Positions 17,296-62,273 of a stretch of DNA of 64,000 nucleotides are shown one piece after another (the stretch's first letter is position 1; each line of letters opens with the position of its first letter). Origin of the DNA: Candidatus Binataceae bacterium (lineage in GTDB: Bacteria > Desulfobacterota > Binatia > Binatales > Binataceae); NCBI GenBank assembly GCA_050736695.1, contig JBOHWH010000135.1, forward strand, positions 28,504 to 92,503, written 5' to 3'. The translations under genes and the position numbers were made by a program. Under the pieces are notes generated by a model. It did not search any database. It had not been told where the DNA came from and was given only the letters and a program-made list of their open reading frames with translations.

Positions 17296-17298
17296 TTC

Positions 17299-18739: not shown

Positions 18740-18743
18740 CGCG

Positions 18744-18887: not shown

Positions 18888-18891
18888 GGGT

Positions 18892-19293
18892 ATGCGAAAA
18901 TTTAACGCTGCGGTTTCGGCGCTCGCAATCGTGTTCGTCTTCGGGTGTTCGAGTCCGACCGATGACTTTGCCGTCGGTAAGACGTACCAGGTAGGTGCGG
19001 GCAAGCACGGATATGTGTGCGCCGGTGCGCCGCATCCGGATGATGCTGAGGTGGATCTAAGCGGAGCAAGCCTCAACCTTCTCAAAGGGCGAGAGTTCAT
19101 CACACAACCTGGGTGTGCAGGCCTGATAGAGTTTGATCGCATCAAAGTTATGGGCGTGAAAGATGACTATTTGGTGGTCGAGGTCGTTTGGGGGTACGAT
19201 CCCACTCGCGATGTGGACGCAACTGGATACGTCGGAATGATGGAGCCGGATTGTCTCGCGCCGGCCGCCCTTCCGGATTTTTCAAAGAAGTGA
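18892..19293 (+). CDS. Hypothetical lipoprotein
   Basis: Signal peptide with lipobox (LAIVFVFGCSS). Confidence 0.5.
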   Translation: MRKFNAAVSALAIVFVFGCSSPTDDFAVGKTYQVGAGKHGYVCAGAPHPDDAEVDLSGASLNLLKGREFITQPGCAGLIEFDRIKVMGVKDDYLVVEVVWGYDPTRDVDATGYVGMMEPDCLAPAALPDFSKK

Positions 19294-19986: not shown

Positions 19987-20045
19987 ATAGATCTCCCGCC
20001 CTTGAGATAGACGTTCCCCGTCCATCCCTCAAGGCGAGGGGACTA

Positions 20046-24255: not shown

Positions 24256-24781
24256 TGTCTTCTTCCTCAATCGGTCCGATTGCCTCGAGTAGCTGGACGA
24301 GTGTTAGGGGCGCACCATCTTTGCCGGTCAGCTCGTGGCGCTGGGGTGCCGCATAGCCGTTGATCTGCGCCGCATGGCGGAGCACCTTGACCCCGGCTTC
24401 AACCGACCGAGGATTGCCTTTGCGTATGCCGGGTTGGAGGTTCATGAACATCTCTTCGCACCGGGAGGTGTCGAGCTTGCGAAACTCGTCGGCTGCAATC
24501 GACGGATCGCGCGCGATCGCTCTCCGAAATGCTTTGTGAATCGCCTGCCGCGAGATTTGAAAGTCAGGCAGGAACGTGACTCCGTCCGGGATCGCGACGA
24601 TCGCCTGGGCTTGGTGTTTCCCCACGCGGGCGATCTGGTCCGCGATCGCGTCGAAGGTCAGGCCAATGCGTTTTAGATGAAGCGTTTCGGCTTCGATCCA
24701 CCTCGCCCTGAGCACCGCCGCAGAAACTACCGTTGGACGATGGGTGCCGCGCCAAGTTCCGTCCGGGTGGCGCCTCATCAC
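24224..24781 (-). CDS. Putative phage terminase small subunit
   Basis: 185-aa ORF immediately upstream of and overlapping terL, downstream of the ParB-MTase; position and size are consistent with a small terminase. Confidence 0.35.
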   Translation of the reverse strand: MMRRHPDGTWRGTHRPTVVSAAVLRARWIEAETLHLKRIGLTFDAIADQIARVGKHQAQAIVAIPDGVTFLPDFQISRQAIHKAFRRAIARDPSIAADEFRKLDTSRCEEMFMNLQPGIRKGNPRSVEAGVKVLRHAAQINGYAAPQRHELTGKDGAPLTLVQLLEAIGPIEEEDNESQKLSRTL

Positions 24782-27435: not shown

Positions 27436-27795
27436 AAACGGATACTTTTAACGGTGTGGTTTACCACGGCCGCGCGGATCGGATGGAAACTGGATTAATC
27501 GCAACGGTCTCTGGGTTTCCGTCGGGCCTCTTTATCCCTGCCTTAGAGTTGATCCTGTTGCAAAAAAGCCTGGTATAGGACTTGTTGGTAGGCAAGACAC
27601 TTGATCGAGTTTATCTTCAGCTGGTTGATTATTTGTGCTGTGACTTCGCGCAATGGTACGTTACGCTGCGCGGGCTGGACTTCTTGATCAGAAGGCTGAG
27701 GATACGACTGAGACAGAAATCCGTTACCCCGACGTGAGAGCCCGCAGGGAACGTTCGGCGTCGAGATGCGGAACTCCTCCGTCGGCGGGAAGGCA

Positions 27796-30651
27796 ATGAA
27801 ATCATCGAGGGTTCGTTCAACCAATCGCGTGCGCGTGTTGTTGGGGGTAGCGGTTCTCCTGGCAGCGATCGCGGGCTACCGGCAGGTTGTAGGGGCGCAA
27901 TCACAACCCCGCGCTTTGATCACCGAGCCGGTCAGCGATACCAAGCTGGTCACGCTCGCGGGTAATACGCGTCCGGAGGCGAACTCACGCTACGATCGCG
28001 GGCCGGTCACTGACAGCTTCCGGATGGAGCATATGTTCCTCCAGTTGCGACGCTCTCCCGGAGCGGAGCACGCCCTTCAGCAGTACATGGGACAACAGGC
28101 CGACCCCAAGTCACCAAACTATCACCATTGGTTGACGGCGCAGGAAATCGGTCAGCGGTACGGTCTGGCCCCGGAAGATATGGTCACGATCACCGGGTGG
28201 CTCCAGTCCCACGGCTTCACTGTCAATGTCGTTTATCCCAACGGCATGGTGATCGACTTCTCGGGTACGGCAGGCGAGGTGCGCAAGGCTTTCCACACCG
28301 AGATTCATCGCCTTGATGTGGACGGCAAGCTACATATCGCCAACATGAGCGATCCGCAGATTCCGGCCGCGCTCGTGCCGGCAGTGGTCGGCATCGTGTC
28401 GCTGAACGACTTCCGGCCGCATCCGATGCGCACGAAAAGCTCGAACTTCTCGCGGGGCGGTACTTGCGGCCCATTGGGCGCTCCGTGTGAGAAGCTCGTA
28501 CCTGCCGACGTCGATACCATCTACAACTTGAATCCGCTCTTTTCCGGCAGTATCACCGGGCAAGGCGAGAGAGTCGTAGTGGTCGAAGATAGCGATGTCT
28601 TCAATCCTGGCAACGCGATTTGTATGGGGAATGGCACTCCCACCGGCTGTTGTTCGGGTTTCGGAACAGGATCCTGCGGCACCGGAGACTGGGACACCTT
28701 CCGCACTACTTTCGGCCTTGCCAGCGACTTCCCGAACGGACGTTTCGTGCAGTTCCAACCGCCACCGCCCAGCGGCTCGAACAATTGTAGCGATCCGGGC
28801 GCCGTCACAGACGTTGATGTCGAGGCGATCCTCGATGCGGAATGGGCCTGCGCGTCGGCGCCCAACGCGACTATCCTTATGGGCTCGTGCGCGGACGTCA
28901 CTACCGGATCTTTTGGGACGACATTGGCTTCGGGAGTTTTTGTCGCACTGCAGAACATTCTAAACGGCGCGCTGAGCCCGAAGCCGGATGTGGTGAGCGT
29001 CAGTTACGGCGAATCGGAGGCAGTTAACGGCGCGTCGTCCAACGCCGCCATCGACTCGCTGTATCAGACGGGCGTGGCGGGAGGCATTTCAATTTTCGTT
29101 GCTGCGGGCGATGCCGGTTCGGATTCTAATGACGAGGATCGAGGGCCGCCTCCATCCGCGGCAACCTTCGGAATCAGCGTGAGCGGATTTGCGTCCAGCC
29201 CGAACGACGTGGCGGTGGGTGGCACCGATTTCGGTGACTTCTTAACCAACACCAGCTCCACATACTGGAATGCGTCGAATGGGGCCAACGATGGCTCGGC
29301 CCAGTCCTATGTGCCGGAAATCCCGTGGAACGACTCGTGCGCCAGCGACCTGTTGTCCGGATTCATGGGCACGGTCTCAACCTTTGGCCCAAGTGGCTTG
29401 TGCGAACTTGCTTTGTTCGGAAGCGGGATTTGCACGAGTAACCGCGAGCCATACGGGTGTTGTGATGGGCCGGGGAGCGGCATTTGTCCACAACCCGATT
29501 TTTCGCTGCAAGTCGCCGGCGGCAGCGGCGGCCCAAGCAGCTGTGCGAGCGGAGCGCCGTCCACGAGCGGCGTGGTAAGCGGGACCTGTAAAGGATGGAC
29601 CAAGCCTGGTTATCAATCGGTTTTTGGCAACCCGAGCGACGGCGTTCGCGATGTTCCCGACGTCGCGCTGTTCGCCGCAGACGGATTGTGGGGGCATTGC
29701 TACGTGTTTTGCAATTCCAACCCTGCGGACATGAATTCATGCACTGGCGACGTCAGCACCTGGCCTTGCGCGGGCGGGACCTCGTTCGCCTCGCCGATAA
29801 TGGCCGGCATCCAAGCTCTGGCCGATCAGAAGACCGGCAGCGATCAAGGCAACCCGAATACCACCTACTATTCGCTCGCGCGCACCGAGTATGGCGCGAG
29901 TGGCAACGCCAGCTGCAAGTCGAGCCTGGGTAACGGAGTTTCAAGTTCGTGCATCTTCTATGACATAACCCAGGGTGACAACGACCAACCATGCGTTGTA
30001 GGCGACCCGAACTGTTTCGCCGACGGAGTACCTACCGGGGATGTCGGCGTGCTGTCCACGTCAAACTCGTCGTTCCAGAACGCATTTGGGGCGAACGCCG
30101 GATGGGACTTCGATACCGGCATCGGGACCGTCAATGCCACCAATCTCGTGATGGCATTTGCCGGCAGCGTGACGGTAACGGTAACGGCAACCGCGACTGC
30201 AACGTCAACCAGCGGCACGCCGACAACAACCGCAACGTCAACTACGCCTAGCACCGCGACTCCGTCGGCAACAATGACTGCTACCGCTACCGCGACGAAG
30301 ACCGCAACGCCGACGGCTACTGCGACGCCGGGCGGCGGGCGAGTCTCGGTGAACCGGAAGAAGCTCGTGCTCAACGCGTCGCCGATGGCGACGGCGTCCT
30401 CAAGTATCACTATTGGCAACAGGGGGACGGGCCCGCTGACGGCTAACGTAAGCGCCCCGGAACACGACCCCCCATTTACGGAGGTTGGTGGAGCAAGGGG
30501 GATTGTGATCGGTCCGGGCTTAAACCACGAAGTGATAATCGTGTACGCGCCGACGAAGAAAGGATCGAGGAGCGATCAGATCTTGATCACGAGCGATGAT
30601 CCCACGCATAAGAAAGTAATCAAGGTGAAAATCAAGGGTAGGGCGAAATAG
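27796..30651 (+). CDS. Secreted sedolisin-like serine peptidase (S53: pro-kumamolisin activation domain + peptidase) with a Cys-rich insert, a Thr/Ala/Pro-rich linker and a C-terminal beta-sandwich domain
   Basis: GGGAAGG RBS before the ATG at 27796. Signal peptide, then an S53 pro-domain (...QYMGQQADPKSPNYHHWLT...). The catalytic serine motif is GGTSFASPIMAG. The linker (TVTVTATATATSTSGTPTTT...) is followed by a roughly 100-aa terminal domain. Confidence 0.8.
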   Translation: MKSSRVRSTNRVRVLLGVAVLLAAIAGYRQVVGAQSQPRALITEPVSDTKLVTLAGNTRPEANSRYDRGPVTDSFRMEHMFLQLRRSPGAEHALQQYMGQQADPKSPNYHHWLTAQEIGQRYGLAPEDMVTITGWLQSHGFTVNVVYPNGMVIDFSGTAGEVRKAFHTEIHRLDVDGKLHIANMSDPQIPAALVPAVVGIVSLNDFRPHPMRTKSSNFSRGGTCGPLGAPCEKLVPADVDTIYNLNPLFSGSITGQGERVVVVEDSDVFNPGNAICMGNGTPTGCCSGFGTGSCGTGDWDTFRTTFGLASDFPNGRFVQFQPPPPSGSNNCSDPGAVTDVDVEAILDAEWACASAPNATILMGSCADVTTGSFGTTLASGVFVALQNILNGALSPKPDVVSVSYGESEAVNGASSNAAIDSLYQTGVAGGISIFVAAGDAGSDSNDEDRGPPPSAATFGISVSGFASSPNDVAVGGTDFGDFLTNTSSTYWNASNGANDGSAQSYVPEIPWNDSCASDLLSGFMGTVSTFGPSGLCELALFGSGICTSNREPYGCCDGPGSGICPQPDFSLQVAGGSGGPSSCASGAPSTSGVVSGTCKGWTKPGYQSVFGNPSDGVRDVPDVALFAADGLWGHCYVFCNSNPADMNSCTGDVSTWPCAGGTSFASPIMAGIQALADQKTGSDQGNPNTTYYSLARTEYGASGNASCKSSLGNGVSSSCIFYDITQGDNDQPCVVGDPNCFADGVPTGDVGVLSTSNSSFQNAFGANAGWDFDTGIGTVNATNLVMAFAGSVTVTVTATATATSTSGTPTTTATSTTPSTATPSATMTATATATKTATPTATATPGGGRVSVNRKKLVLNASPMATASSSITIGNRGTGPLTANVSAPEHDPPFTEVGGARGIVIGPGLNHEVIIVYAPTKKGSRSDQILITSDDPTHKKVIKVKIKGRAK

Positions 30652-39901: not shown

Positions 39902-41616
39902 TCAAGCCGAACCTGCCGCGGTCGAGGCGGGTAGTTCCTTGATTGGGCGGATCTCCCAGCGGCCTCCGCTGCTCAGTTCGAGGTTGCGATCGTGGTATTG
40001 CGCCAGGCTGGTGCGATGGCCGACGCTTACCACCACTATCGGACTATCGACGAGCCGTCGGTAGAGCATCGTTTCGTTGGCCGGGTCGAGTGCGCTGGTC
40101 GCCTCGTCCAGAAAGGCGAAGCGCGGCAGATTGAGTATCAGGCGCCCGAACGCGAGACGTTGCTGCTCGCCCTGCGACAGGACGTCGGCCCAATTGCGCT
40201 CGGCGTCGAGACCGCCGACGCGCGCGGGCAGATCCGCAAGATTCACCTCGGCGAGGATGCGATTCAGATCGTCGTCGGAGGCTCCCGCCGCGCGCGGGTA
40301 GCATAGCTGCGCGCGCAACGAACCCAGAATCATGTAGGGCCGCTGCGGCAGGAACATCATGTCGGCGAGCGGCGGGCGCACGATTCGACCGCTGCCGGTG
40401 CGCCAGATGCCCGCGATCGCGCGGGTCAGCGAAGTTTTTCCGACACCGCTCGCACCCGTGATCAGCAGGCGTTCGCCCTCTTTGACATCGACCGACAGAT
40501 TCTCCACCAATTGGTTTTGTCCGTCCGGAGTTTTGAGCGAGACATCTTCGAGCGCGATGCACTGCTCTTCGGCGATCTCGATCCCGGGGCTGCCTTCGGC
40601 CAGGCGGGCGTTGTCGCACGCTTCGAGATAGGTTGCGAGCCGATTCACCACCGTGGCATACCTGGTCAATCCCTGGAAATCACTGATCACGAGGGCCAGG
40701 GTGCCCTTGACCGCGCCAAAGGCGGTCGCCGCCTGAAAGATTTGCCCCATCTGAATTTTATGCGAGAAATAGGCGCCCGCCAGCACGATCCACGGCACCA
40801 GGGCGACCGAGTTGTCGTAAGCGGTCTGCACGAAGCCCAGATATAGCTGCCATTGAAGCAGCAGCTTGAAATTCGAGACCACCCACCCGAAGCGTCGGCT
40901 AAGCTCGCCATGCTCCTGCGCTTCGCCGCCGTACATCGCGATCGATTCGGCATTGTCGCGCACGTGAACCAGGTCAAAGCGGAAGTCCGCCTCGTAGCGC
41001 TCCTGATTGAAATTAATCAGCACCAGGCGGCGGCCCACGATCACGGCAGCGTAGGTGCCGATAACCGAATAGGCGATCAGCGAGATTGCCAGCCAGTGCG
41101 AGATCGTCCACAGGATTCCGAAGAACGCGGCCGCCATCACGAGCGAACCCACCAAGCTGTTGATGTAGCTGAGCGTCGAGGTGGTGAAAGTATCGAGATC
41201 CTGCTGGATGCGTTGGTCGGGGTTATCGACGTTGCCGTCGAGGTTCATCTGGTAGAAGGCATGATTGCCGAACCCCGCGCCAACGAACCACTCGGTCATC
41301 CATTCGCGCCAAAGAATCTGGAGCCTGCCGATCAGGTAGGGCAGGAATGGGTAAACCACGATGACGAAAGAGATCCAGATGAAAAAAGCTTCAGCAGGAA
41401 ATAAAATCTCTTCTGATTGTACTTCTGGAGCGCATCGACCACGTCGCGGTTGATATAGCTGAAGACCGCCGAGAACCCGACGAACAGCAGGATCATCACG
41501 AGTACGACGGCCAGCAGGGTGCGGCCCTTGCGCTTCTGATCCGAAACCCAAAACGGCTTCGCCAGCCGCCATAGCCGCTGCCAGAAGACCCGGTCAAACC
41601 TATCCATTGAATTCAA
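39902..41616 (-). pseudogene. ABCD-type (SbmA/BacA-like, ABC_membrane_2) ABC transporter permease/ATPase, with a frameshift near codon 65
   Basis: The N-terminus (MNSMDRFDRVFWQRLWRLAKPFW...) is in the 41332-41616 frame. The rest (TM region, Walker A GASGVGKTS, signature LSQGEQQRLAFGR, Walker B FAFLDEATSALD) is in the 39902-41572 frame. The frames switch around 41400-41445, near A/T homopolymers. Confidence 0.65.
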
Positions 41617-41763: not shown

Positions 41764-42915
41764 CTATTGCTTACCGGCGATCGCGCCGGATTTGCGCAGC
41801 CGCTCGAGATCGCCCGCGCTGAAACCCCAATCGCCGAGCGCGGCTTCCGTATGCTCGCCCGGCCGCGCCGGCGGACGCTGGATCTTGCTCGGAGTGCGGC
41901 TGAAACGCGGTGCCGGACCCGGCTGGAGAACGCCGCCGCTTTCGACGAAGGTGCCGCGATGCCGGTTGTGCGGATGATGCGGCGCTTCGTCCATGCTGAG
42001 GACGGGCGCGAAGCAGATGTCGCTGCCCTCCATGATCGCGCACCACTCGTCGCGCGTCTTGGTCAGGAACAGGGCCTTCAGCCGCTCCTTCATTTTCGGC
42101 CATGAGGCGCGGTCATTCTGGCGCGGCAGCTCCTGCCCCTTGAGGCCCGACAGGCGCAGCAGCTCGTCATAAAATTTGGCTTCGATCGATCCGATCGCGA
42201 CGTGTTTGGCGTCTTTGGTCTCGTAAACTTCGTAATAATGCGCGCCCGTGTCGAGAATATTTTCGCCGCGCTTGTCGTTCCACACTCCCGACAGACGCAG
42301 GCCGTAAATCGCGGTCATCAGCGACGCCGCTCCATCGACCATCGCCGCATCGACCACCTGTCCCTTGCCGGACTTTTGCGCCTCGAGCAGCCCCGCGACG
42401 ACGCCGAGCGCCAGGTAAAGCGCGCCTCCGCCAAAGTCTCCCACCAGGTTGAGCGGCGGGAGCGGCGCGTCGCCTTTGCGGCCGATACTGGCGAGGGCGC
42501 CGGACAGCGCAATGTAGTTGATATCGTGGCCCGCTGCATGCGCGAGCGGACCCTCCTGACCCCATCCGGTCATGCGTCCATAGATCAGGCGTGGATTACG
42601 CTTAAGGCAATCGTCGGGACCGAGCCCGAGCCGTTCGGTCACGCCGGGCCGAAAGCCTTCGATCAGCGCGTCCGCCTTTTCGACCAGTCTCAGCACCGCC
42701 TCGATCGCCTCGGGACGTTTGAGGTCGAGCGCGACCGAGCGGCGGCCGCGATTGAGCAGGCTGTATTTGGTTTCCATCGCTATGCCCAGCGCGGCGTCAG
42801 CCGTGCGGTCGATACGCAGCACGTCGGCGCCCATGTCCGACAGCAGCATCGCGCACATCGGTCCCGGACCGATTCCCGCAAGTTCCACAATTTTGTAACC
42901 TGACAATACTCCCAT
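41764..42915 (-). CDS. CoA-transferase family III protein (CaiB/BaiF; alpha-methylacyl-CoA racemase-like)
   Basis: The N-terminus LSGYKIVELAGIGPGPMCAMLLSDMGADVLRID is the family III signature. 383 aa. Confidence 0.85.
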   Translation of the reverse strand: MGVLSGYKIVELAGIGPGPMCAMLLSDMGADVLRIDRTADAALGIAMETKYSLLNRGRRSVALDLKRPEAIEAVLRLVEKADALIEGFRPGVTERLGLGPDDCLKRNPRLIYGRMTGWGQEGPLAHAAGHDINYIALSGALASIGRKGDAPLPPLNLVGDFGGGALYLALGVVAGLLEAQKSGKGQVVDAAMVDGAASLMTAIYGLRLSGVWNDKRGENILDTGAHYYEVYETKDAKHVAIGSIEAKFYDELLRLSGLKGQELPRQNDRASWPKMKERLKALFLTKTRDEWCAIMEGSDICFAPVLSMDEAPHHPHNRHRGTFVESGGVLQPGPAPRFSRTPSKIQRPPARPGEHTEAALGDWGFSAGDLERLRKSGAIAGKQ

Positions 42916-43049
42916 GATTCACCTCATAAGCTCTTCGGCCTGCTCATCGCTAGCGCGAAGATCGGTTTCGATCCCGCGCCACGCTTGGCGTGGTATCCCT
43001 TCTCTCTAGTATAGATTCAAGAGAACATCACGGGACGAAGAGCGAATAA

Positions 43050-45035
43050 ATGATGGCGACGAAAATGCCGCGCCTGCATTTCGAGGGGCGATGGTTCGTT
43101 GACGAGTCGGGGCGGCGCGTGATTCTGCGCGGCGTCAACCTGGGCGGCGACTGCAAGGTTCCCTATCCAGATGGCGGCACCAACTTTCCCTCCGACTTCT
43201 CGGACCATCGCGAGGTCTCGTTCATCGGGCGGCCGTTTCCGCTCGAACAGGCCGACGAGCATTTTGCGCGCATCCGCGGATGGGGCTTCAACTGCCTGCG
43301 CCTGCTCACGACGTGGGAAGCCGTCGAACATCGCGGCCCGGGAGAATTCGACGCCGAGTATCTCGACTACTACGCCGAGCTATGCCGCCGCGCGGGAGAC
43401 TTCGGGCTTTACGTCTTCGTCGATTTTCATCAGGACGTATGGAGCCGGATGAGCGGCGGCGACGGCGCGCCGTGCTGGATGTTCGAGAAAGTCGGAATCG
43501 ATTACCGGCATCTGGCCGAATCGGAATCGGCGCACGTAATGCAGTTCCTTTACGACTACGCGCGCGGCGGGCGTCAGGAAGATCGCTACCCGACGATGAC
43601 CTGGTCGCAGAACGCGCGCCGGCCCGCCAACGGAATCATGTGGACGCTGTTTTTCGCGGGCCGCGACTTCGCGCCCGGGCTCAATATCGACGGCCGCAAC
43701 GTTCAGGACTACATGCAGGATCACTATTTGGCCTCGCAGGCAGAAATCGCGCGGCGCGTGCGCGATCTTCCCAACGTGATGGGCTTCGACACGCTGAACG
43801 AGCCGCACGAAGGGTGGATCGGGCACTCGCTGAGTTATCGCCACCTCGCGCCGAGCGAGGAGGATCCATTTCCCGCCTCGCCCGGCGTTGCCTGGTCGCC
43901 AATCGACGGGCTACTGGTTTCGCACGGAGTAACCCGCGCGCTCCCGGAACTCGGATACGACAAAGCGGCCAAGCGCGCGGTCGTGCGCCGCGACCGTGAG
44001 ATGAATCCGCGAAAAGTGTCGATCTGGCGCGATGGGCGGGTCGATCCATTCGAACAAGCGGGAGCATGGCGGCTCGGCCCGGGCGGCAACTACGAGATTT
44101 TGCGCGAGGATTTTTTTCAGCGCATCGGCGATCGCAAAGTCAGCTTTATCGAAGACTACATGGGACCGTTTTTCACCCGGGTCGCGGAGAATATGCGCGC
44201 GATCAATCCGGACTGGATTCTGTTTGCGGAAGTCGATCCGCTCTCCGGATTTCTTGGACCCGGTTTTCCCGCCGATACTCCCGCCAACAGCGTCAACGCA
44301 GGCCACTGGTACGACATTGTGACGCTGGGCACGAAGACTTTTCGGACCGATTTTACTTTGGATGAATTGATTGGTGAGACGGCGGCCGCGGCCGTGCAGA
44401 TTCAAACCCGCTACGAGCAACAGCTTGGGCGGTTCGCGAAGAGCTCAGAACGAATCGGCGCCGGCGGAGTGCCCACGCTGATCGGCGAATTCGGAATTCC
44501 GTTCGATCTGAACGGCGGTGAAGCCTACCGCGCCTTTCGCGGCGGCGATCGCTCTTTGACTCCGTGGACGCCGCACATCGTCGCGCTCGATCTGATGTAC
44601 AACGCGCTCGATGCGCTGCTGATCAACAGCACTCACTGGAACTACACCGCATCCAACCGCAACGACCTTGCGATCGGCGACGGATGGAACCAGGAGGATC
44701 TGAGCATCTTCTCGCGCGACCAACAGACCGACCCTAACGACTTGAACAGCGGCGGACGCGCGCTCACGGGCTTCGTGCGGCCGTTCGCCCATGCGACGCA
44801 GGGAACGCCGCGCAAGTCGAAATTCGATCGCGTGTCGGGCGATTTCGAGTTCGTATTCGACGCCGATCCGAAGGCGTCAGCCCCGACCGAGATCTTCGTG
44901 CCGAAGCTTCAATATCCGCGCGGATGCGAGGTCGAGATTTCGGGCGGCGAGGCACGCATCGATCTCGAGCTTCAGCGCCTGTTCGTCACGATTCGCGGAG
45001 CCGGCGAGGTTCGCGTGGCGTTGCATCGGCGATAA
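43050..45035 (+). CDS. Glycoside hydrolase family 5 protein (cellulase-superfamily, endoglycoceramidase-like)
   Basis: GVNLGG...GFNCLRLLTTWEAVEH near the N-terminus and the catalytic NEP (FDTLNEPHEGW). 661 aa. The stop lies 2 nt before the boxC start. Confidence 0.7.
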   Translation: MMATKMPRLHFEGRWFVDESGRRVILRGVNLGGDCKVPYPDGGTNFPSDFSDHREVSFIGRPFPLEQADEHFARIRGWGFNCLRLLTTWEAVEHRGPGEFDAEYLDYYAELCRRAGDFGLYVFVDFHQDVWSRMSGGDGAPCWMFEKVGIDYRHLAESESAHVMQFLYDYARGGRQEDRYPTMTWSQNARRPANGIMWTLFFAGRDFAPGLNIDGRNVQDYMQDHYLASQAEIARRVRDLPNVMGFDTLNEPHEGWIGHSLSYRHLAPSEEDPFPASPGVAWSPIDGLLVSHGVTRALPELGYDKAAKRAVVRRDREMNPRKVSIWRDGRVDPFEQAGAWRLGPGGNYEILREDFFQRIGDRKVSFIEDYMGPFFTRVAENMRAINPDWILFAEVDPLSGFLGPGFPADTPANSVNAGHWYDIVTLGTKTFRTDFTLDELIGETAAAAVQIQTRYEQQLGRFAKSSERIGAGGVPTLIGEFGIPFDLNGGEAYRAFRGGDRSLTPWTPHIVALDLMYNALDALLINSTHWNYTASNRNDLAIGDGWNQEDLSIFSRDQQTDPNDLNSGGRALTGFVRPFAHATQGTPRKSKFDRVSGDFEFVFDADPKASAPTEIFVPKLQYPRGCEVEISGGEARIDLELQRLFVTIRGAGEVRVALHRR

Positions 45036-45036
45036 A

Positions 45037-46725
45037 ATGAAAAATACTCCAGTGGAACGCAATTCAATAGCGCCGATGATTGATTTTCGCACCGAGCCTT
45101 CACGCTACCGGCACTGGAAACTATCGATCGCCGGAGCAGTCGCCACGCTCGCGATGGACGTGGACGAAACCGGCGGTTTGGTTCCCGGCTACGAGCTGAA
45201 GCTCAACTCCTACGACCTGGGCGTTGATATCGAGTTGAACGACGCGATTCAGCGCCTGCGCTTCGAGCATCCGGAGGTCGGATGCGTGATGATCACGTCC
45301 GCCCGGGAGCGCGTGTTCTCCGCCGGCGCGAACATCAGGATGCTCGCGCAGTCGAGTCATCCTTTCAAAGTGAATTTCTGCAAATTTACAAACGAGACAC
45401 GCAACGCAATCGAGGATGCGACGCACAACTCGCGGCAGTTCTATATGACCACGATCGGCGGCCCCTGCGCCGGCGGAGGTTACGAACTCGCGCTCGCAAC
45501 TGACTACATCGTGATGGCCGACGACGGCTCGACCAGCGTCTCGCTTCCCGAGCTGCCGCTGCTCGCGGTGCTGCCGGGAACGGGCGGGCTGACCCGCCTC
45601 GTTGACAAGCGACATGTGCGCCGCGATCGCGCCGATTTTTTCTGCACCACCGAAGAAGGGATCAGAGGCTCGCGCGCCGTCGATTGGCGGTTGGTCGACG
45701 AAGTCGCGCCACGCTCGCGGATTGCGGAAATCGCGGCGCGCAAAGCCGCCGAGTTTGCCGCGCGTTCGGACCGAAGTGCCGCGCATGGCGGAATTGCGCT
45801 GAGCCCGCTCGCGCGGAGTATCGAAGGCGACCGGATTGCGTATCTGCATCTCACCGTCGATCTCGATCGCGCCCAGTCTGCCGCAGTCTTCCGTATCGAG
45901 GGCCCCTCGCAACCCGCGCCGGCGCGAGTTGACGACGCGATCGCGCTCGGATGCGATTTCTGGCCGCTCGCGTTCGCGCGCGAGCTCGAGGACGCGATCC
46001 TTCATCTGCGCTTCAATGAAGACACCGTCCGAACCTGGATTTTCCGCAGCGAAGGCGACCTCGCGCGACTGAAGTCCTACGACGATCTTATGGCCGCGCA
46101 CGCTGACGACTGGCTGGTCCGCGAGATCGTTCTCTATCTGAAGCGCACCCTCAAGCGGCTCGACGTGAGTTCGCGTTCGATGTTCGCATTGATCGAGCCT
46201 GGCTCATGTTTCGGCGGCATTCTGCTGGAGCTCGCGCTCGCGGCTGACCGTGCGTACATGATGCGCGGAAAACGTGCGGATGACGAAACCGCCCCCGCGC
46301 GAATCGTGCTGTCGAAAATGAATTTCGGCGCGCTGCCGATGTGCAACGGTCTCTCGCGGCTGCAAACCAGATTCCTGGACGCTCCCGAGCACGTCGAGAC
46401 AGTATGCGCTCGAATCGGCGAAGAGCTCTCGGCTGAGGACGCCGACGTGCTCGGGCTGGCCGGCTTCACCCCTGACGATATCGACTGGAACGACGAGACC
46501 CGCCTCGCGATCGAGGAGCGCGCCGCATTTTCCTCCGACGCGCTCACCGGACTCGAGGCGTCGCTGCGCTTTGCCGGGCCGGAGACAATCGAAACGAAAA
46601 TTTTCGCGCGGCTGTCCGCTTGGCAGAACTGGATCTTCCAGCGGCCCAACGCAATCGGCGAAAAGGGCGCGCTCAAACTCTACGGCACCGGGCGCCGGGC
46701 CGAATTCGATCCGAGGCGAGTGTGA
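45037..46725 (+). CDS. boxC: Benzoyl-CoA-dihydrodiol lyase BoxC (crotonase-fold, about 560 aa)
   Basis: N-terminal IDFRTEPSRYRHWKL...GYELKLNSYDLGVDIELNDAIQRLRFEHPEV, the crotonase motif CAGGGYELALATDYI, and ...LPGTGGLTRL match BoxC from the aerobic benzoyl-CoA pathway. The ATG is at 45037; the ORF-track upstream extension overlaps the GH5 gene. Confidence 0.8.
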   Translation: MKNTPVERNSIAPMIDFRTEPSRYRHWKLSIAGAVATLAMDVDETGGLVPGYELKLNSYDLGVDIELNDAIQRLRFEHPEVGCVMITSARERVFSAGANIRMLAQSSHPFKVNFCKFTNETRNAIEDATHNSRQFYMTTIGGPCAGGGYELALATDYIVMADDGSTSVSLPELPLLAVLPGTGGLTRLVDKRHVRRDRADFFCTTEEGIRGSRAVDWRLVDEVAPRSRIAEIAARKAAEFAARSDRSAAHGGIALSPLARSIEGDRIAYLHLTVDLDRAQSAAVFRIEGPSQPAPARVDDAIALGCDFWPLAFARELEDAILHLRFNEDTVRTWIFRSEGDLARLKSYDDLMAAHADDWLVREIVLYLKRTLKRLDVSSRSMFALIEPGSCFGGILLELALAADRAYMMRGKRADDETAPARIVLSKMNFGALPMCNGLSRLQTRFLDAPEHVETVCARIGEELSAEDADVLGLAGFTPDDIDWNDETRLAIEERAAFSSDALTGLEASLRFAGPETIETKIFARLSAWQNWIFQRPNAIGEKGALKLYGTGRRAEFDPRRV

Positions 46726-48149
46726 TGGCGATCGACTACTCCGAACGGATTCCCAATAACGTAAACCTGGACGGCGATCGCCGCCTGCAACGCGCGCTCG
46801 AAGCATGGCAGCCGGAGTTCCTGAAATGGTGGGGCGAGATGGGGCCCGAGAGCTTTCAGTCCTGCGAGGTTTATCTGCGCACCGCAACCTCAGTGGACGC
46901 GAAAGGCTGGGCCACCTTCGGCTACGTGAAAATGCCTGAATACAGGTGGGGAGTATTCCTTGCGGATCGCGAATCCGACGCGCGAATCGGCTTCGGCGAA
47001 CATAAGGGCGAGCCGGTCTGGCGCGAGGTCCCGGGCGAGCATCGCGGAGTCCTGCGCCGCCTGATCGTCACCCAAGGCGACACGGAGCCTGCCTCGGTCG
47101 AGCAGCAGCGTCATCTCGGGCGCACCTGCCCGTCGCGCTACGACCTGCGTAATCTCTTTCAAGTGAACGTAGAAGAGGGGCGCCATCTGTGGGCGATGGT
47201 TTACCTGCTGCACGCGCATTTTGGACGCGACGGACGCGAAGAAGCCGACGCGCTCTTGAGGCGCCGTTCCGGCAGCACCGACAATCCGCGCATCCTGGGC
47301 GCGTTCAATGAACGCACGCCGGACTGGCTGGCGTACTTCATGTTCGCGCACTTCACCGATCGCGATGGAAAATTTCAGCTCGCCAGCCTGGCTGAATCCG
47401 GCTTCGACCCGCTCGCGCGGACCTGCCGTTTCATGCTCACCGAGGAAGCGCACCATCTGTTCGTCGGCGAGGCGGGAGTCGGACGAGTGATTGCGCGGAC
47501 CTGCGAGCTCATGAAGCATCACGACACCGATCGGGTTGGGAAATTCGGCGGAATCGATCTGGGGATCATCCAGCGTTATTTGAATTTCCATTATTCCGTC
47601 TCGCTGGATCTGTTCGGCTCCGAGCTATCGACCAACGCCGCCAACTATTTCAGCGCCGGACTTAAGGGACGGTTCAGAGAAGCCGACGCGCACGACGATC
47701 ATCAATTGATCGGTAGCGAGCGGCGGATTTTGAAGCCGCAAGACGGCGTGATCGTCGAAATCGAACAACCTTCCCTGGCCGCGCTCAACGAAACCCTGCG
47801 TGATTCGTATGTCGCCGATTGCGAGCGCGCGCTCGCGCGTTGGAACAAGATCATTCGCGAGGCCGGAGTCGAAACCGCGCTCACGCTGCCGCATCGCGGC
47901 TTCAATCGCGCGATCGGGCACTTCAGCGGGACCAGCGTGACCCCCGCCGGCCAGATAATCACGCGCGATCAGTGGCTCGAGCGCCAGTTCGAATGGCTGC
48001 CGTCGCCCACCGACCGCGAATTTATCGCGTCGCTTATGACTCCGGTCACGGAGCTGGGAAAATTCGCCGGATGGATTGCGCCGCCAACCCGGGGAATCAA
48101 TCATCAGCCGATCGAGTTTGAATACGTGACCGAGCTGCCTGCCCCTTGA
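46725..48149 (+). CDS. boxB: Benzoyl-CoA 2,3-epoxidase oxygenase component BoxB (diiron enzyme, about 474 aa)
   Basis: N-terminal MAIDYSERIPNNVNLDGDRRLQRALEAWQPEFLKWW...; NVEEGRHLWAMVYLL and TEEAHHLFVGE are diiron-ligand motifs typical of BoxB. The ATG overlaps the boxC stop (TGATG). Confidence 0.8.
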   Translation: MAIDYSERIPNNVNLDGDRRLQRALEAWQPEFLKWWGEMGPESFQSCEVYLRTATSVDAKGWATFGYVKMPEYRWGVFLADRESDARIGFGEHKGEPVWREVPGEHRGVLRRLIVTQGDTEPASVEQQRHLGRTCPSRYDLRNLFQVNVEEGRHLWAMVYLLHAHFGRDGREEADALLRRRSGSTDNPRILGAFNERTPDWLAYFMFAHFTDRDGKFQLASLAESGFDPLARTCRFMLTEEAHHLFVGEAGVGRVIARTCELMKHHDTDRVGKFGGIDLGIIQRYLNFHYSVSLDLFGSELSTNAANYFSAGLKGRFREADAHDDHQLIGSERRILKPQDGVIVEIEQPSLAALNETLRDSYVADCERALARWNKIIREAGVETALTLPHRGFNRAIGHFSGTSVTPAGQIITRDQWLERQFEWLPSPTDREFIASLMTPVTELGKFAGWIAPPTRGINHQPIEFEYVTELPAP

Positions 48150-48172
48150 GCGCGAGCGGAGGGAATCGCTTC

Positions 48173-48772
48173 ATGGCGGAATCCAATCTGCCGCGCATCG
48201 AGACTCTCTCCGGCGCGCTACCTTGGATCTTGTACTTCGCGCTGCCGCACCTTGGCCTGCCCGTCGCCGCGCTGATCGCCGCGTTCGTCGCGGCATTGTA
48301 TCCGGCCGCAATAGCGGCCGCGCGCGGAAAAAGCGTGAAGCTGATCGATTGGACCACCCTCGCCTTCTTTGCGTTCGGATTGGCCGCATTGGCCGCGGGC
48401 ACTTCGGCGACGGCGGCGTTCTCGCACTACAACTACGTGTTAGTGTGGATCTTGTTCTCTGCGATGGCGTGGATATCCCTGTTGCTCGGGAAGCCGTTCA
48501 CGCTTGAATTCGCGCGCGAATCGACACCGCCCGAAATCTGGGGCACGCCGTTGTTTCACCACGCCAACGTGATCATCACACTGGCGTGGGCTGCCGCGTT
48601 CACGCTTAATCTTCTGGTCGCGCTGCTCGCGCTCAGGCTAAGGGGAGCGGCGGCTATCGCGGCGCAGATTTTCCAATTCATCCCGATGGCGGGCGCGGTG
48701 GTGTTCATGAGCCGCTACCGCGCGTCGATCCAGCAAGGGCGCGCTAGGTCCGCGCCGGCTGCGACGATCTGA
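48173..48772 (+). CDS. Hypothetical polytopic membrane protein, co-directional with and coupled to boxB
   Basis: Five or six hydrophobic helices; the frame starts within or at the boxB stop. No recognisable family. Confidence 0.4.
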   Translation: MAESNLPRIETLSGALPWILYFALPHLGLPVAALIAAFVAALYPAAIAAARGKSVKLIDWTTLAFFAFGLAALAAGTSATAAFSHYNYVLVWILFSAMAWISLLLGKPFTLEFARESTPPEIWGTPLFHHANVIITLAWAAAFTLNLLVALLALRLRGAAAIAAQIFQFIPMAGAVVFMSRYRASIQQGRARSAPAATI

Positions 48773-50168
48773 CCGGCCTGTCGAGCGCCTGAACGGTTTG
48801 CGGGCGACCGATCGCGGACCAATATGCCGCCAGAAATCCGAGCATCATCACCACAAATCCGAGCTCGGCGACTGCGACAATCAGCACGGACGGTCCAAGC
48901 GGCAATCCGGCGTTGAACCGCGGCGTATCGGCGGCCCAAAAGCGCAGCCACAGCGCGCTCAGAAAAAAATTCGCGACCAACGCCCAGACCGCGAGCGCCG
49001 ATCCGCGTCCCTCGAGCGCGCACCACGCGATGGTCGCGAACGGAATCAGCAGCAGCGCCATGTAATGCGGCCATGCGATCGGTGAAAGCACGATCGCCGC
49101 CGCGATCCACAAACCGTAGGCTCGGAAATCGCGGTCAGGTTCCGTTTCGCGATGAGGAGTCGTCCGCCACACCAGCATCACTATCGCGAACGCGCAAACC
49201 AGCACCGCCAGGTGTCGCCCGAGTTCGAGCGCGGGGCTGAGCGGCGCGCCAAATGCGTACCAGAACATCCGCGAAACGAACGGAGCTAGCCCGAGGTTGA
49301 ACGCGAGGCTGCTCTGCCAGAACCCGGAATTCCACGCGATCATCCTGACCCAGCTAAAGCATCGCGCGACCCCGGTTATCGCGGCCGTCGCAAGCGCGCC
49401 CCCAACGCAAAACACAACCATCCAGAAGAGCGCCCGCCACTTGCGCCGCGCCAGCAGATAGCCACCCATCAGGAGCGGGAAGGCACGCAGCAGTCCGGCT
49501 AGCGCGAGTCCCGCGCCAGCCCCCACGTCGCCCCTCCGTCCGCGCCCGAGCGATCGCATCGCGAGCACCAGCAGAAACACCAGGACGATCTGCGTCTGTC
49601 CCCAGATGAACACCTGATCAATCGGCGAATACAGAAACGCCAGCGCCGCCAGGCTGAGCGCGGCGGCGCGCGACTCGGCGCCTGCCGGCGCAAGCAGCAT
49701 CCACAACGATGCGATCAGAAGCACGAAGTTCAGCGAGATCCAGACGGCATGCGCCAGTCGTGGTGAAAGCCGAGTCAACGGTTCGAAGCACAAAAGAAAC
49801 ACCGGCGTTTCGGCTGAGTGGATCATCGCGCCGGCGTCGAGGTTCAGTCTCGCGCTCATCTCCAGCAGATTGTCAGAATAGGGATTCATCCCGTCGCGCA
49901 TCGCGAGTGCCGAAACATAGTGACTGCTGAAATCGAGTAGCCGGTAGCGCGGCGCGACTTGCATGCTCAGCGTCGCCAGATGAAACATCGCGGCGACGAG
50001 CAGCATCCCCGCGACCGGCGCGCGTCTAAGCGCTATCGCAGTGCGCGGACCAATGCCCTGTCTTGGAGGATTTTCGTCGGACACGTGGGCGCGCTTGGGC
50101 ATCGCGGCTACACGCATAGCATGTTCGGCAGTCTGCTTAAACACATTATTTGACCATGCAGATCGCAA
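48744..50168 (-). CDS. Glycosyltransferase family 87 (DUF2029) integral-membrane mannosyltransferase-like protein
   Basis: Polytopic membrane protein with a GT87/DUF2029-like hydrophobic pattern (about 12 TM segments; the loops are Arg-, Trp- and Pro-rich). The start may be the internal M at 50117. Confidence 0.6.
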   Translation of the reverse strand: MRSAWSNNVFKQTAEHAMRVAAMPKRAHVSDENPPRQGIGPRTAIALRRAPVAGMLLVAAMFHLATLSMQVAPRYRLLDFSSHYVSALAMRDGMNPYSDNLLEMSARLNLDAGAMIHSAETPVFLLCFEPLTRLSPRLAHAVWISLNFVLLIASLWMLLAPAGAESRAAALSLAALAFLYSPIDQVFIWGQTQIVLVFLLVLAMRSLGRGRRGDVGAGAGLALAGLLRAFPLLMGGYLLARRKWRALFWMVVFCVGGALATAAITGVARCFSWVRMIAWNSGFWQSSLAFNLGLAPFVSRMFWYAFGAPLSPALELGRHLAVLVCAFAIVMLVWRTTPHRETEPDRDFRAYGLWIAAAIVLSPIAWPHYMALLLIPFATIAWCALEGRGSALAVWALVANFFLSALWLRFWAADTPRFNAGLPLGPSVLIVAVAELGFVVMMLGFLAAYWSAIGRPQTVQALDRPVRSSQPART

Positions 50169-61107: not shown

Positions 61108-61875
61108 ATGAAAATCGTTCGCTACAGTTCGAAAAGTCGCGTAAGTTTTGGCGCGCTCGACGGCACGTCGATTCTGCCGCTTGCGGGCGCGCTCGAGTTG
61201 CTCAAACCGGCGGCGGACGCCAAGCCGGTCGCGGCCGCGTCAGTCAAATTACTCGCGCCGATTGCGCCGGGCAAAATCGTCGCGGTGGGCGTTAATTATA
61301 GCGACCACGCCAGCGAGATGGGACGCCAACTCCCCGAGGAGCCGCTCCTGTTCATCAAACCCTCGACCTGCGTTATTGCTCCTGAGGCGCCGATCATCTA
61401 TCCGCCGCAGTCGAAGCTGCTGCATTACGAAGGCGAGCTCGCAATCGTGATTTCTCGCGCGGCGGCGAAAGTCGCAACCGAGGACGCGCGCGATTACGTG
61501 CTCGGCTACACCTGCATGAACGACGTGACCGCGCGCGACTTGCAGCGCAAAGACGTGCAGTTCACGCGCGGCAAAGGCTTCGACACGTTTGCGCCGCTGG
61601 GCCCCGTGATCGCGACCGACATCGCCGATCCTGACGATCTTGCGCTGACCACGCGCCTCAACGGCGAGGTGCGGCAGCAAAGCCGCACCTCGAATCTCAT
61701 CTTCAAGTGCGATTTTCTGGTCAGCTATATTTCGCACATCATGACGTTGCTGCCGGGTGATGTAATCTCGACCGGAACGCCGTCGGGCGTTGGCGAGATG
61801 AAACCGGGCGACACGGTCGAAGTCGAAATCGAGAAAATCGGATGTCTTCGGAGCATCGTCGCCGCGCCCCGCTGA
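61108..61875 (+). CDS. Fumarylacetoacetate hydrolase (FAH) family protein
   Basis: FAH-fold motifs (GVNYSDHASE, HYEGELAIVI, MNDVTARDLQ, GKGFDTFAPLGP, GTPSGVG). Confidence 0.85.
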   Translation: MKIVRYSSKSRVSFGALDGTSILPLAGALELLKPAADAKPVAAASVKLLAPIAPGKIVAVGVNYSDHASEMGRQLPEEPLLFIKPSTCVIAPEAPIIYPPQSKLLHYEGELAIVISRAAAKVATEDARDYVLGYTCMNDVTARDLQRKDVQFTRGKGFDTFAPLGPVIATDIADPDDLALTTRLNGEVRQQSRTSNLIFKCDFLVSYISHIMTLLPGDVISTGTPSGVGEMKPGDTVEVEIEKIGCLRSIVAAPR

Positions 61876-62273
61876 CCCGCGGCCGCCCGCGCGCCACCCC
61901 CGCTCCGGCGCATCGGCGCTACCGGGTAGGACGCACGCAGGATCTGGCGCCGGGCGAGTCGCAGAAGTTCATGCTGCCGATTCGCGGCACCGACGAAGAA
62001 TGTTTCCTGATCAATTTTTCGGGCGCGTTTCACGCATACGTGAATCGATGCCGCCATGTGCCGATGGCGATGGACTGGGTGGACAATCAGTTCTTCGCCG
62101 AAGAAGGGCGCTACCTGATGTGCCAGACGCACAACGCCTACTACGAACCGGGCTCGGGCCAATGTATCGCGGGACCGGAATCAGCCTGCGGAAAATTTCT
62201 GTATCGGGTACCGATCGAAATCGAAGAAGGGACTATTTACGCGCGCGCCCCCGAAGAGGAGTTCGACGACTGA
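61842..62273 (+). CDS. Rieske [2Fe-2S] domain protein
   Basis: Rieske ligands CRH (NRCRHVPMAMDW) and CQTH (LMCQTHNAYYE). The start overlaps the FAH 3' end. Confidence 0.7.
   Translation: MSSEHRRRAPLTRGRPRATPAPAHRRYRVGRTQDLAPGESQKFMLPIRGTDEECFLINFSGAFHAYVNRCRHVPMAMDWVDNQFFAEEGRYLMCQTHNAYYEPGSGQCIAGPESACGKFLYRVPIEIEEGTIYARAPEEEFDD

Follow-up and report, generated by a model that had tools for sequence, protein, structure and literature searches.

Architecture of the locus

The window analyzed here is the whole 64-kb stretch of Candidatus Binataceae DNA. Four open reading frames lie on its plus strand at the positions originally predicted, and they encode a GH5 glycosidase (43050..45035), BoxC (45037..46725 or 45076..46725, depending upon the start codon), BoxB (46725..48149), and a small polytopic membrane protein (48173..48772). 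Divergent from these, on the minus strand, are the genes for an α-methylacyl-CoA racemase (41764..42915) and, 3' of it, a fused ABC transporter (39902..41572).

In the original prediction the four plus-strand genes were described as one translationally coupled unit, a claim that is not demonstrable. The overlap between the boxC stop and the boxB start is real, with the two codons sharing one nucleotide within TGATG (46723-46727), and the tblastn coordinates at most Binataceae loci fit the same arrangement. There is also an ATG at 45037, one nucleotide past the GH5 stop, but it is not conserved as a start codon. In most relatives its position is occupied by CTG, is out of frame, or is followed by a stop. 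The boxC start conserved in all relatives is ATG 45076 (M-I-D-F-R), which leaves a gap of 40 nt after the GH5 gene (74 nt in the related locus L091). Likewise, for the membrane protein gene to overlap the boxB stop, translation must begin at TTG 48146, the start of the longest open reading frame. The conserved start is ATG 48173, 23 nt beyond boxB, and in most relatives its counterpart is preceded by a GGAG-like motif. These two tight junctions require non-conserved start codons; only the boxC/boxB overlap, and with it the boxC-boxB coupling, is conserved. The GH5 gene, boxC, boxB, and the membrane protein gene are probably co-transcribed.

Identities of BoxC and BoxB

The assignments of boxC and boxB were borne out by profile searches and structural matches. 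BoxC scores 878.5 bits against TIGR03222 (cutoff 712.3) and aligns over nearly its full length with PDB 2W3P (E 1e-206). BoxB, the di-iron oxygenase component of benzoyl-CoA 2,3-epoxidase, scores 804.8 bits against TIGR03225 (cutoff 499.1) and aligns to a similar extent with PDB 3PER (E 3e-208). All six di-iron ligands are retained in BoxB, in the residues aligned to E120, E150, H153, D211, E240, and H243. Its matches at 90% identity are Candidatus Binataceae proteins, and by BLASTP/tblastn the identities to the homologues from BoxA-linked proteobacterial loci are 62-66% for BoxB and 54-59% for BoxC. The two proteins are thus true BoxC and BoxB orthologues rather than non-orthologous relatives. 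The dN/dS values of 0.10-0.16 for boxC and 0.10-0.13 for boxB, even where dS exceeds 1.3, indicate purifying selection. Both genes are genuine and intact.

Missing partner genes and the source of electrons

As originally noted, boxA and a benzoate-CoA ligase gene are missing from the window. No tblastn match to boxA was found in the 64 kb, even at E≤1, and at this threshold there was no credible match to boxR or to the ligase, the sole hit being 21 residues long with an E of 0.63. The window also contains no boxD. The pair had been called an "orphan" without its partners, but it represents the usual arrangement in the Binataceae and in most of the non-proteobacterial BoxB lineages sampled, and there are published precedents. 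Among the BoxB loci from species genomes, with flanks of up to 10 kb considered, BoxA was not found at 69 of 80. These include all of the Binataceae loci, together with Rokubacteria, actinomycete, and Chloroflexota loci, with isolates of Actinomycetospora, Actinomadura, and Thermomonospora among them. The 11 loci with BoxA within these flanks are all proteobacterial, and their BoxB sequences form a single clade. The lack of a linked reductase gene is normal in the Binataceae, a soil lineage without cultured members, and in several other phyla. The boxR gene lies directly 5' of boxC in several Binataceae clades and has been lost in the lineage of the window.

Full-length BoxA-like proteins are few, with ∼13 representatives at 50% clustering, and of four that were examined, three work with other oxygenases. 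BoxA-like ferredoxin-FNR fusions also adjoin Rieske and P450 oxygenases, showing these reductases to be modular. No divergent BoxA-like representative could be assigned to the Binataceae.

It is quite possible that the Binataceae and the other boxA-less lineages have no BoxA orthologue at all, and that BoxB receives its electrons from a different carrier, for instance the small Rieske protein encoded at 61842-62273 or a ferredoxin/FNR pair of generic type. If true, BoxB, a known oxygenase, would have a reductase partner of a new kind. The distribution of BoxA described above, isolates included, the restriction of BoxA-linked BoxB to one clade, and the small number of BoxA-like representatives are all consistent with such a scheme. 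In addition, the Rieske gene is conserved in the backbone and lies 2 kb 3' of the block in L091. The di-iron hydroxylases of toluene monooxygenases are fed by Rieske ferredoxins. In the window, however, the Rieske gene is located 13.7 kb from boxB and could be unrelated, and, since the BoxA count covers locus flanks, boxA may lie unlinked elsewhere in the genome. At the boxA-less loci examined, no alternative reductase gene recurs as a neighbor. Furthermore, the action of BoxA is catalytic and transient (PMC4498308), which would leave little pressure for its gene to remain linked.

The GH5 glycosidase and the neighboring genes

The predicted GH5 hydrolase was correctly placed in its family (PF00150 and PF18564, the protein carrying a GH5 C-terminal domain), but it is not of the cellulase type. 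Rather, it resembles steryl-β-glucosidases and glucosylceramidases, with E-values of 2e-80 against the sterylglucosidase SglA (PDB 8EXD) and 2e-79 against PDB 7LPO. It scores above no NCBIfam equivalog cutoff, that for endoglycoceramidase I being 700 bits versus the 108 observed. The catalytic motifs NEP (Glu 251) and GEFG (Glu 480) are present, there is no N-terminal hydrophobic signal, and the enzyme is predicted to be cytoplasmic. The dN/dS is 0.11-0.13.

Upstream of the GH5 gene, on the plus strand, is a promoter-like block (42985..43036) consisting of TTGGCG (42985-42990), a spacer of 16 nt, TAGTAT (43007-43012), and then GATTCAAGAGAACATCACGGG. It is almost invariant in eight clade-A loci and recognizable in L091. 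A generic promoter scan did not call this block, which may nevertheless act as a promoter.

The adjacent "CoA-transferase" of the original prediction has the family III CoA-transferase fold but proved to be an orthologue of α-methylacyl-CoA racemase (MCR/AMACR). It matches M. tuberculosis MCR (PDB 1X74) over its full length (E 1e-124) and conserves the counterparts of His 126 and Asp 156 (AGHDINY and LVGDFGGG). With this His/Asp pair it is an unlikely source of benzoyl-CoA. The protein is 86-99% identical in relatives, with a dN/dS of 0.04-0.08.

The ABC transporter is a fused permease and ATPase of the ABCD/SbmA-BacA type (PF06472, PF05992, PF00005) that scores 264 bits against TIGR00954, below the cutoff. 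A member of the conserved block, it adjoins the racemase in L004, L006-L010, and L044 (62-91% identity) and in L091 (72%), and is reduced to a short remnant in L002 and L003. The membrane protein (199 residues), an accessory member of the block, had been described as having six helices; hydropathy gives about five to six. It belongs to no Pfam family and shows a weak match to the VC0807 family (28.5 bits, cutoff 65). Homologues are found 3' of boxB in L005, L007, L009, and L044 (65-70% identity) and in L091 (49%); L006, L008, L010, and L002 have a truncated version or none. Its dN/dS is ∼0.3.

Conservation of the gene order

The order ABC transporter-racemase, then divergently GH5-boxC-boxB-membrane protein, is found in nine genomes. 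These represent two Binataceae lineages, between which BoxB diverges by 21% and GH5 by 29%. The dS across this divide is 1.3-1.7 and thus saturated, and all five genes tested in the block are under purifying selection. Retention of a six-gene order past dS saturation is also expected of a selected operon.

The synteny of GH5 with boxC and boxB in relatives is therefore conserved in two lineages, but it is dispensable. In L002-L004 the GH5 gene has been deleted, leaving the promoter block and ∼22 GH5 codons as a 5' relic ahead of the retained boxCB. Most Binataceae have boxCB without GH5, and others have boxR-boxC-boxB with GH5 elsewhere. In L033, a contig of 4.34 Mb (CAWKOR010000001.1), boxR-boxC-boxB lies 3.2 Mb from the GH5 orthologue, which is found beside a glycogen phosphorylase gene. 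A Parvibaculaceae GH5 orthologue has no box genes nearby, and in another Binataceae clade an unrelated GH13 isoamylase occupies the upstream position. The window and L091 share synteny beyond the block as well, in the backbone genes for Memo, the Rieske protein, and a tRNA U5-methyltransferase. Given the deletion in a sister lineage, the separate locations elsewhere, and the synteny of the backbone, the GH5 gene is most likely an inherited neighbor with no functional link to the box genes.

It is accordingly unlikely that the block forms one catabolic unit for an aromatic glycoconjugate, in which the ABC transporter would import an aryl- or benzoyl-glucoside, or else a conjugate resembling a glycolipid, to be deglycosylated by GH5, activated with CoA, and ring-opened by BoxB and BoxC. 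The gene order shared by such divergent lineages, the conserved promoter block, a cytoplasmic GH5 with intact catalytic glutamates, and the purifying selection would all be in keeping with such a unit. Against it stand the clean deletion of GH5, its absence from most boxCB loci, the 3.2-Mb separation, and the steryl glucosides that are the substrates of its closest characterized relatives. Moreover, with a racemase in place of a CoA-transferase, the block encodes no activation step.

Even less probable is that BoxB and BoxC now act on another aryl- or acyl-CoA and are linked to the lipid-type neighbors instead of benzoate. The lipid-CoA character of the racemase and the ABCD-type transporter, and the loss in this clade of boxR, a benzoyl-CoA-responsive regulator, might suggest such a change, but the equivalog scores, the identities to BoxA-linked homologues, and the structural alignments all speak against it. 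In addition, boxR is kept in sister clades having near-identical proteins, and a high substrate specificity has been reported for BoxB (PMC4498308). That boxCB is the decaying remnant of a cluster once equipped with boxA, boxR, and the ligase is scarcely credible, for although the partner genes are missing and some boxC genes of another Binataceae clade appear fragmented, the reading frames and di-iron ligands are intact and dN/dS remains at 0.10-0.16 across a long divergence. Most of the fragmented cases, though not all, occur in MFD-series MAGs with very long contigs, and thus indel errors of long-read assembly are suspected.

Proposed function

From the observed orthology, intact catalytic residues, purifying selection, and gene order with its history, the locus is likely to be a boxC-boxB module that works in the aerobic benzoyl-CoA epoxide pathway with an unlinked reductase, and with GH5, the racemase, and the transporter as neighbors. 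BoxB would epoxidize benzoyl-CoA at C2-C3, and BoxC would open the epoxide to yield 3,4-dehydroadipyl-CoA semialdehyde and formate. BoxC would probably also relieve product inhibition of BoxB, as it does in Azoarcus, where the two co-purify. The linked module in the Binataceae is (boxR)-boxC-boxB only, and hence unlinked genes would have to supply the reductase, an enzyme to activate benzoate, and the downstream aldehyde dehydrogenase. For the reductase we lean slightly toward a BoxA-type ferredoxin-FNR fusion encoded elsewhere in the genome; another ferredoxin or reductase is nearly an even prospect. Transcription of boxCB, together with the small membrane protein gene, probably reads through from the conserved putative promoter of GH5. 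The GH5, racemase, and transporter genes have a lipid/glycolipid flavor and would not be partners in benzoate catabolism. Inasmuch as the boxA-less state is usual and GH5 is most likely an inherited neighbor, the finding is largely an ordinary one.

Comparison with known systems

The cluster of Aromatoleum (Azoarcus) evansii and Thauera comprises boxR, boxC, boxB, and boxA, with bclA and boxD nearby. The window shares with it equivalog-level BoxC and BoxB, their lengths, the di-iron ligands, and the order of boxC followed by boxB. The window differs in having no boxA 3' of boxB, no boxR, ligase, or boxD within 64 kb, and GH5 rather than boxR 5' of boxC. Also, boxC and boxB overlap in the window, stop codon on start codon, but are separated by a gap in the proteobacterial loci.

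The box cluster of Sedimenticola selenatireducens CUZ was described with boxB and boxC only, and its Box proteins peak in abundance on benzoate plus O2 (PMC4453571). Bins of SAR324 carry a BCL-boxB-boxC cluster (PMC4782131). The missing reductase goes without discussion in either report (PMC4453571, PMC4782131). As in the window, the box module in both is described with the oxygenase and the dihydrolase alone, plus the ligase in SAR324, but these clusters belong to a different phylum and have no glycosidase, racemase, or membrane protein neighbors.

The GH5 protein shares with the fungal Sgl1/SglA enzymes (7LPO, 8EXD) a GH5 catalytic domain that aligns (E 1e-80) over ∼550 residues. Also shared are the NEP motif, the motif of the nucleophile Glu, a C-terminal β-sandwich domain, and a cytoplasmic location. 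It differs in being bacterial and about 120-135 residues shorter. Finally, the racemase matches M. tuberculosis MCR over its full length with counterparts of the His/Asp pair conserved, and racemase activity is predicted. Unlike MCR, it is paired with an ABCD-type ABC transporter and is divergent to GH5-boxCB.

Identities of BoxC and BoxB

Four same-strand open reading frames, located by ORF calling on the window with the junctions read directly, span positions 43050-48772. The third of these (46725-48149, forward strand) encodes a protein that scores 804.8 bits against TIGR03225, for which the cutoff is 499.1, and that can be aligned from one end to the other with 3PER, the Azoarcus evansii BoxB, at an E value of 3e-208. 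The counterparts of E120, E150, H153, D211, E240, and H243 (A. evansii numbering), the di-iron ligands of BoxB, are conserved in all six cases within the motifs GDTEP, VEEGRH, FTDRDG, and TEEAHH. The preceding reading frame (45037/45076-46725, depending upon which of two start codons is employed) yields 878.5 bits on the BoxC profile model, the cutoff of which is 712.3, and a full-length, end-to-end alignment with Burkholderia BoxC (2W3P, E 1e-206). These values, both of which exceed the equivalog cutoffs, bear out the original prediction that 45037-46725 and 46725-48149 encode BoxC and BoxB, and the profile scores and structure matches rule out a generic crotonase or PaaA-like identity. On the basis of these matches, the two proteins are true orthologues. 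An exact look-up revealed no identical sequence on record for the window BoxB, and its closest relatives, with up to 90-91% identity, come from Candidatus Binataceae MAGs.

Gene junctions

The stop codon of boxC and the start codon of boxB overlap as TGATG, as had been predicted, and the tblastn coordinates of the BoxC ends and BoxB starts are compatible with the same overlap in most Binataceae loci. In proteobacterial loci, the tblastn coordinates place a gap, rather than an overlap, between the two genes. The proposed tight placement of boxC behind the GH5 gene holds only in part. An ATG is indeed positioned 1 nt past the GH5 stop codon in the window and in two related loci (L006 and L009), but this start is not conserved. 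The codon equivalent to 45037 is CTG in L005, L007, and L008, the equivalent start is followed by an in-frame stop in L010, and it lies out of frame in L044. The start common to all relatives, including the divergent Binataceae locus L091, is ATG 45076 (MIDFR...), from which the GH5-boxC gap measures 40 nt in the window and 74 nt in L091. An overlap of the membrane-protein gene with the boxB stop, also proposed, requires TTG 48146, which is not conserved; the start that is conserved, ATG 48173, is preceded in most relatives by a GGAG-like motif at a distance of 8-10 nt. Translational coupling of all four genes is thus reduced to its boxC-boxB component, to which robust coupling is limited, whereas the other two junctions hinge on the choice of start codon. 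The close packing of the four genes is plausibly accompanied by co-transcription.

The membrane protein itself (48173-48772, forward strand) matched nothing in a profile search except, weakly and below threshold, the VC0807 membrane-protein family, and its single-sequence structure model was of low quality (pLDDT 61, pTM 0.29). Homology with the soluble protein that follows boxB in a Binataceae clade with a GH13-type gene was considered and rejected.

The missing partners

The surroundings of BoxB were surveyed in 80 loci from species-representative genomes, with flanks of up to 10 kb, and in metagenome contigs, onto which the proteins of the window were mapped together with BoxA, a 2x[4Fe-4S] ferredoxin-FNR reductase, from Thauera, the identity of which had been verified (TIGR03224, 716 bits). 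BoxA follows boxB in only 11 of the 80 loci, all of the Betaproteobacteria or Rhodospirillales type, and in a neighbor-joining tree the BoxA-linked BoxB sequences form one clade. Within the flanks of up to 10 kb, BoxA was found in none of the Binataceae loci, nor in those of Rokubacteria/Methylomirabilia, actinomycetes (Actinomycetospora, Actinomadura, and Thermomonospora), or Dehalococcoidia.

Within the window, tblastn with the Thauera BoxA gave no match even at E ≤ 1, and two cluster-linked benzoate-CoA ligases produced just a 21-residue match (E 0.63), in keeping with the predicted lack of both genes. Pfam/NCBIfam scans detected no AMP-binding domain among the larger ORFs of the window and, with regard to BoxD, no Aldedh domain among the ORFs scanned (the larger ORFs and all but a few small ones). 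There is no credible match in the window to BoxR, which consists of an HTH and a shikimate-kinase-like domain. The term "orphan" is therefore true of the boxC-boxB pair in the window, but it describes the usual state in Binataceae and in several other phyla, and the window arrangement is typical of Binataceae. The tight boxC-boxB linkage combined with a loose or absent boxA linkage fits with the report that BoxC co-purifies with BoxB and relieves its product inhibition (PMC4498308).

Candidate electron donors for BoxB

A word-index search with the Thauera BoxA returned betaproteobacterial proteins only among the best 120 matches listed. An exhaustive search of 50%-identity representatives revealed ∼13 clusters of divergent, full-length BoxA-like ferredoxin-FNR proteins; among these representatives, listed without taxon names, and the four contexts examined, no BoxA-like protein was assignable to Binataceae. 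One of the four contexts is a canonical proteobacterial ligase-boxR-boxC-boxB-boxA cluster. In the other three (L086, L088, and L089), ferredoxin-FNR fusions that are 44-51% identical to the Thauera BoxA adjoin genes for a Rieske ring-hydroxylating oxygenase or a cytochrome P450, and thus the BoxA architecture serves oxygenases besides BoxB. In the boxA-less loci examined, no alternative reductase is consistently located beside boxB, the neighbors being unrelated genes. Two possibilities for the donor are a BoxA-type protein encoded elsewhere in the genome and a different ferredoxin system.

A small Rieske [2Fe-2S] protein of 143 aa (CxH...CxxH), overlooked by longest-ORF calling, is encoded at 61842-62273 on the forward strand between the genes for Memo and a tRNA U5-methyltransferase. 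It is 69% identical to its counterpart in L091 (15154-15585), the gene for which is just 2 kb from boxB. The proposal of this backbone protein as a candidate electron carrier for BoxB is speculative.

The GH5 enzyme and the upstream neighbors

The GH5 gene (43050-45035, forward strand) encodes a (β/α)8 cellulase (GH5) domain (PF00150) followed by a GH5 C-terminal domain (PF18564). Rather than a cellulase-superfamily hydrolase in the usual sense, as was first suggested, the protein is closest to the fungal cytoplasmic steryl-β-glucosidases SglA (8EXD) and 7LPO, the Cryptococcus enzyme Sgl1, with E values of about 1e-80. The acid/base Glu 251 (NEP) and the nucleophile Glu 480 (GEFG) align with those of the fungal enzymes and are conserved, in keeping with the steryl-glucosidase/EGCrP-like group of GH5 enzymes. 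No signal peptide was found in the protein, and its score against the endoglycoceramidase I equivalog NF051847 is 108 bits, with a cutoff of 700 and a good match in the C-terminal part only.

Preceding the gene at 42985-43036 in all members of the window's clade is a conserved block, TTGGCG-N16-TAGTAT and then GATTCAAGAGAACATCACGGG, which persists where GH5 is deleted and is recognizable in L091. A sigma-70/terminator scan of 41.5-50.6 kb gave nothing above shuffled expectation and did not call the block. We infer that it may provide a promoter and leader for transcription of GH5-boxC-boxB-(membrane protein).

The divergently oriented family III enzyme (41764-42915, reverse strand), which has the fold of the family III CoA-transferases, matches 1X74, the structure of MCR, over its full length with an E value of 1e-124, and the His 126/Asp 156 pair, which we take to be the catalytic pair of MCR, is conserved (AGHDINY and LVGDFGGG). 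Its scores against the CoA-transferase equivalogs are all far below cutoff. The notion that a nearby CoA-transferase might supply the CoA-thioester context consequently fails for this gene, the product of which is an α-methylacyl-CoA racemase orthologue and is unlikely to make benzoyl-CoA; a role as a benzoate CoA-transferase was rejected on the MCR match and the racemase His/Asp pair. No other gene of the region is conserved as strongly as that of the racemase, which is 86-99% identical across Binataceae. Its partner (39902-41572, reverse strand) is an ABCD/SbmA-BacA-type transporter. Taken together, the GH5 enzyme, the racemase, and the transporter look lipid- or glycolipid-related.

History of the gene order

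Several Binataceae clades display the order boxR-boxC-boxB, with the regulator gene directly upstream of boxC, and this is probably the ancestral Binataceae module. In one large clade, a GH13 isoamylase-type gene lies upstream and boxR is kept only in L022; MerR, glutaredoxin, a soluble protein, and a convergent GT87 are found downstream. Note that boxC looks truncated or split in L001/L015, L013, L021, L023, L027, and L046, all belonging to this GH13-type clade. Most, but not all, of these genomes are MFD-series MAGs with very long contigs, and we suspect long-read assembly indel errors rather than real pseudogenes.

In the clade to which the window belongs together with L005-L010 and L044, the reverse-strand transporter and family III enzyme genes diverge from GH5, boxC, and boxB, usually followed by the gene for the 199-aa membrane protein and then kdp genes. 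The full order from transporter to membrane protein recurs in L091 (GCA_030041155.1), with identities to the window of 79% for BoxB, 71% for GH5, and 49% for the membrane-protein homologue (204 aa). Beyond the block, the genes for Memo, the small Rieske protein, and the tRNA U5-methyltransferase are likewise syntenic. The box block of L091 abuts Memo directly; the GT87 and kdp cluster (about 48.7-59.7 kb) represents either an insertion in the window or a deletion in L091. In the window, GT87 (48744-50168, reverse strand) overlaps the membrane-protein gene by 29 nt at its 3' end, and a kdpFABC-kdpD-PAS histidine kinase-sigma54 regulator cluster extends to ∼59700 between the box block and Memo.

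The GH5-boxC-boxB synteny thus holds for the window's clade and L091 and breaks down in L002-L004 and L033. The L002-L004 loci are without GH5, yet retain the upstream block and ∼22 GH5 N-terminal codons (PRLH..GRWF.DE.G), and their boxCB is kept at 84% identity. The relic, at 8038-8324 in L002 and present also in L003 and L004, ends in a stop and is located immediately ahead of boxC. GH5 is accordingly ancestral in these loci and was deleted while boxCB stayed. A search with the window GH5 located orthologues throughout Binataceae and in Parvibaculaceae. On a 4.34-Mb contig with boxR-boxC-boxB (L033), the orthologue lies 3.2 Mb away, adjoining glycogen phosphorylase and a dual-specificity phosphatase, and in a Parvibaculaceae genome it has no box neighbors.

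Pairwise dN/dS values are 0.04-0.08 for the racemase, 0.10-0.16 for BoxB and BoxC, 0.11-0.13 for GH5, and about 0.3 for the membrane protein. By this measure, each of the five genes tested is being maintained, also in comparisons with dS >1.3.

The juxtaposition of GH5 with boxCB is, from these comparisons, old in two lineages but dispensable. The order is best explained as one inherited after boxR loss rather than as a common pathway, and it probably carries no mechanistic message. The block might instead constitute a dedicated aromatic-glycoconjugate route, with import, cytoplasmic removal of the sugar, and ring opening by BoxB on a non-BoxA donor. We regard such a scheme, against which the retention of boxCB after the deletion of GH5 and the GH5 orthologues remote from box genes speak, as improbable. 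If true, it would mean that, in an uncultured phylum, the box pathway has both a novel substrate entry and a novel reductase partner.

Other features of the window

Beyond a tRNA-Val gene (10110-10187) lie a gene for a large serine recombinase (10826-12616, reverse strand) and, up to ∼27500, DNA of lower and uneven G+C with restriction-modification genes including a DNA methylase (24778-26133). The segment 10110-27500 looks like an island integrated at the tRNA gene. A type I/III restriction R-subunit gene within it is apparently split into an HSDR_N/ResIII/helicase part (15304-17295) and an EcoEI_R_C C-terminal part (20046-20972), between which are an IS1595-family transposase (17299-18225) and ∼1.8 kb of low-GC DNA, which suggests disruption of hsdR (15304-20972) by insertion. 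A 961-aa sedolisin/kumamolisin-like protease with a Pro-kumamolisin activation domain and a subtilase domain is encoded at 27766-30651.

Implications and comparison with known systems

The boxC-boxB pair of the window is a real and probably functional module. Binataceae, a soil lineage that is abundant and uncultured, can now be credited with what looks like a functional core of the aerobic benzoyl-CoA pathway, in support of a role in aromatic-acid degradation. Most sampled BoxB loci outside one proteobacterial clade have no boxA nearby. The pathway may therefore be underestimated where completeness is judged by the presence of BoxA next to BoxB/BoxC. The residual interest lies in which reductase serves BoxB in the many lineages without a linked boxA.

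Several features of the region recall characterized systems. The GH5 protein shares the catalytic glutamates of the cytoplasmic fungal steryl-β-glucosidases SglA and 7LPO and, like them, is predicted to be cytoplasmic. The 39902-41572/41764-42915 pair, an ABCD-type (peroxisomal acyl-CoA transporter-like) transporter with a racemase, echoes the peroxisomal combination of ABCD and AMACR. SAR324 bins contain ligase-boxB-boxC (PMC4782131). Finally, Sedimenticola selenatireducens CUZ has a box cluster that was described with boxB and boxC and the proteins of which were most abundant on benzoate with oxygen; it thereby provides a precedent for the boxA-less pair of the window (PMC4453571).
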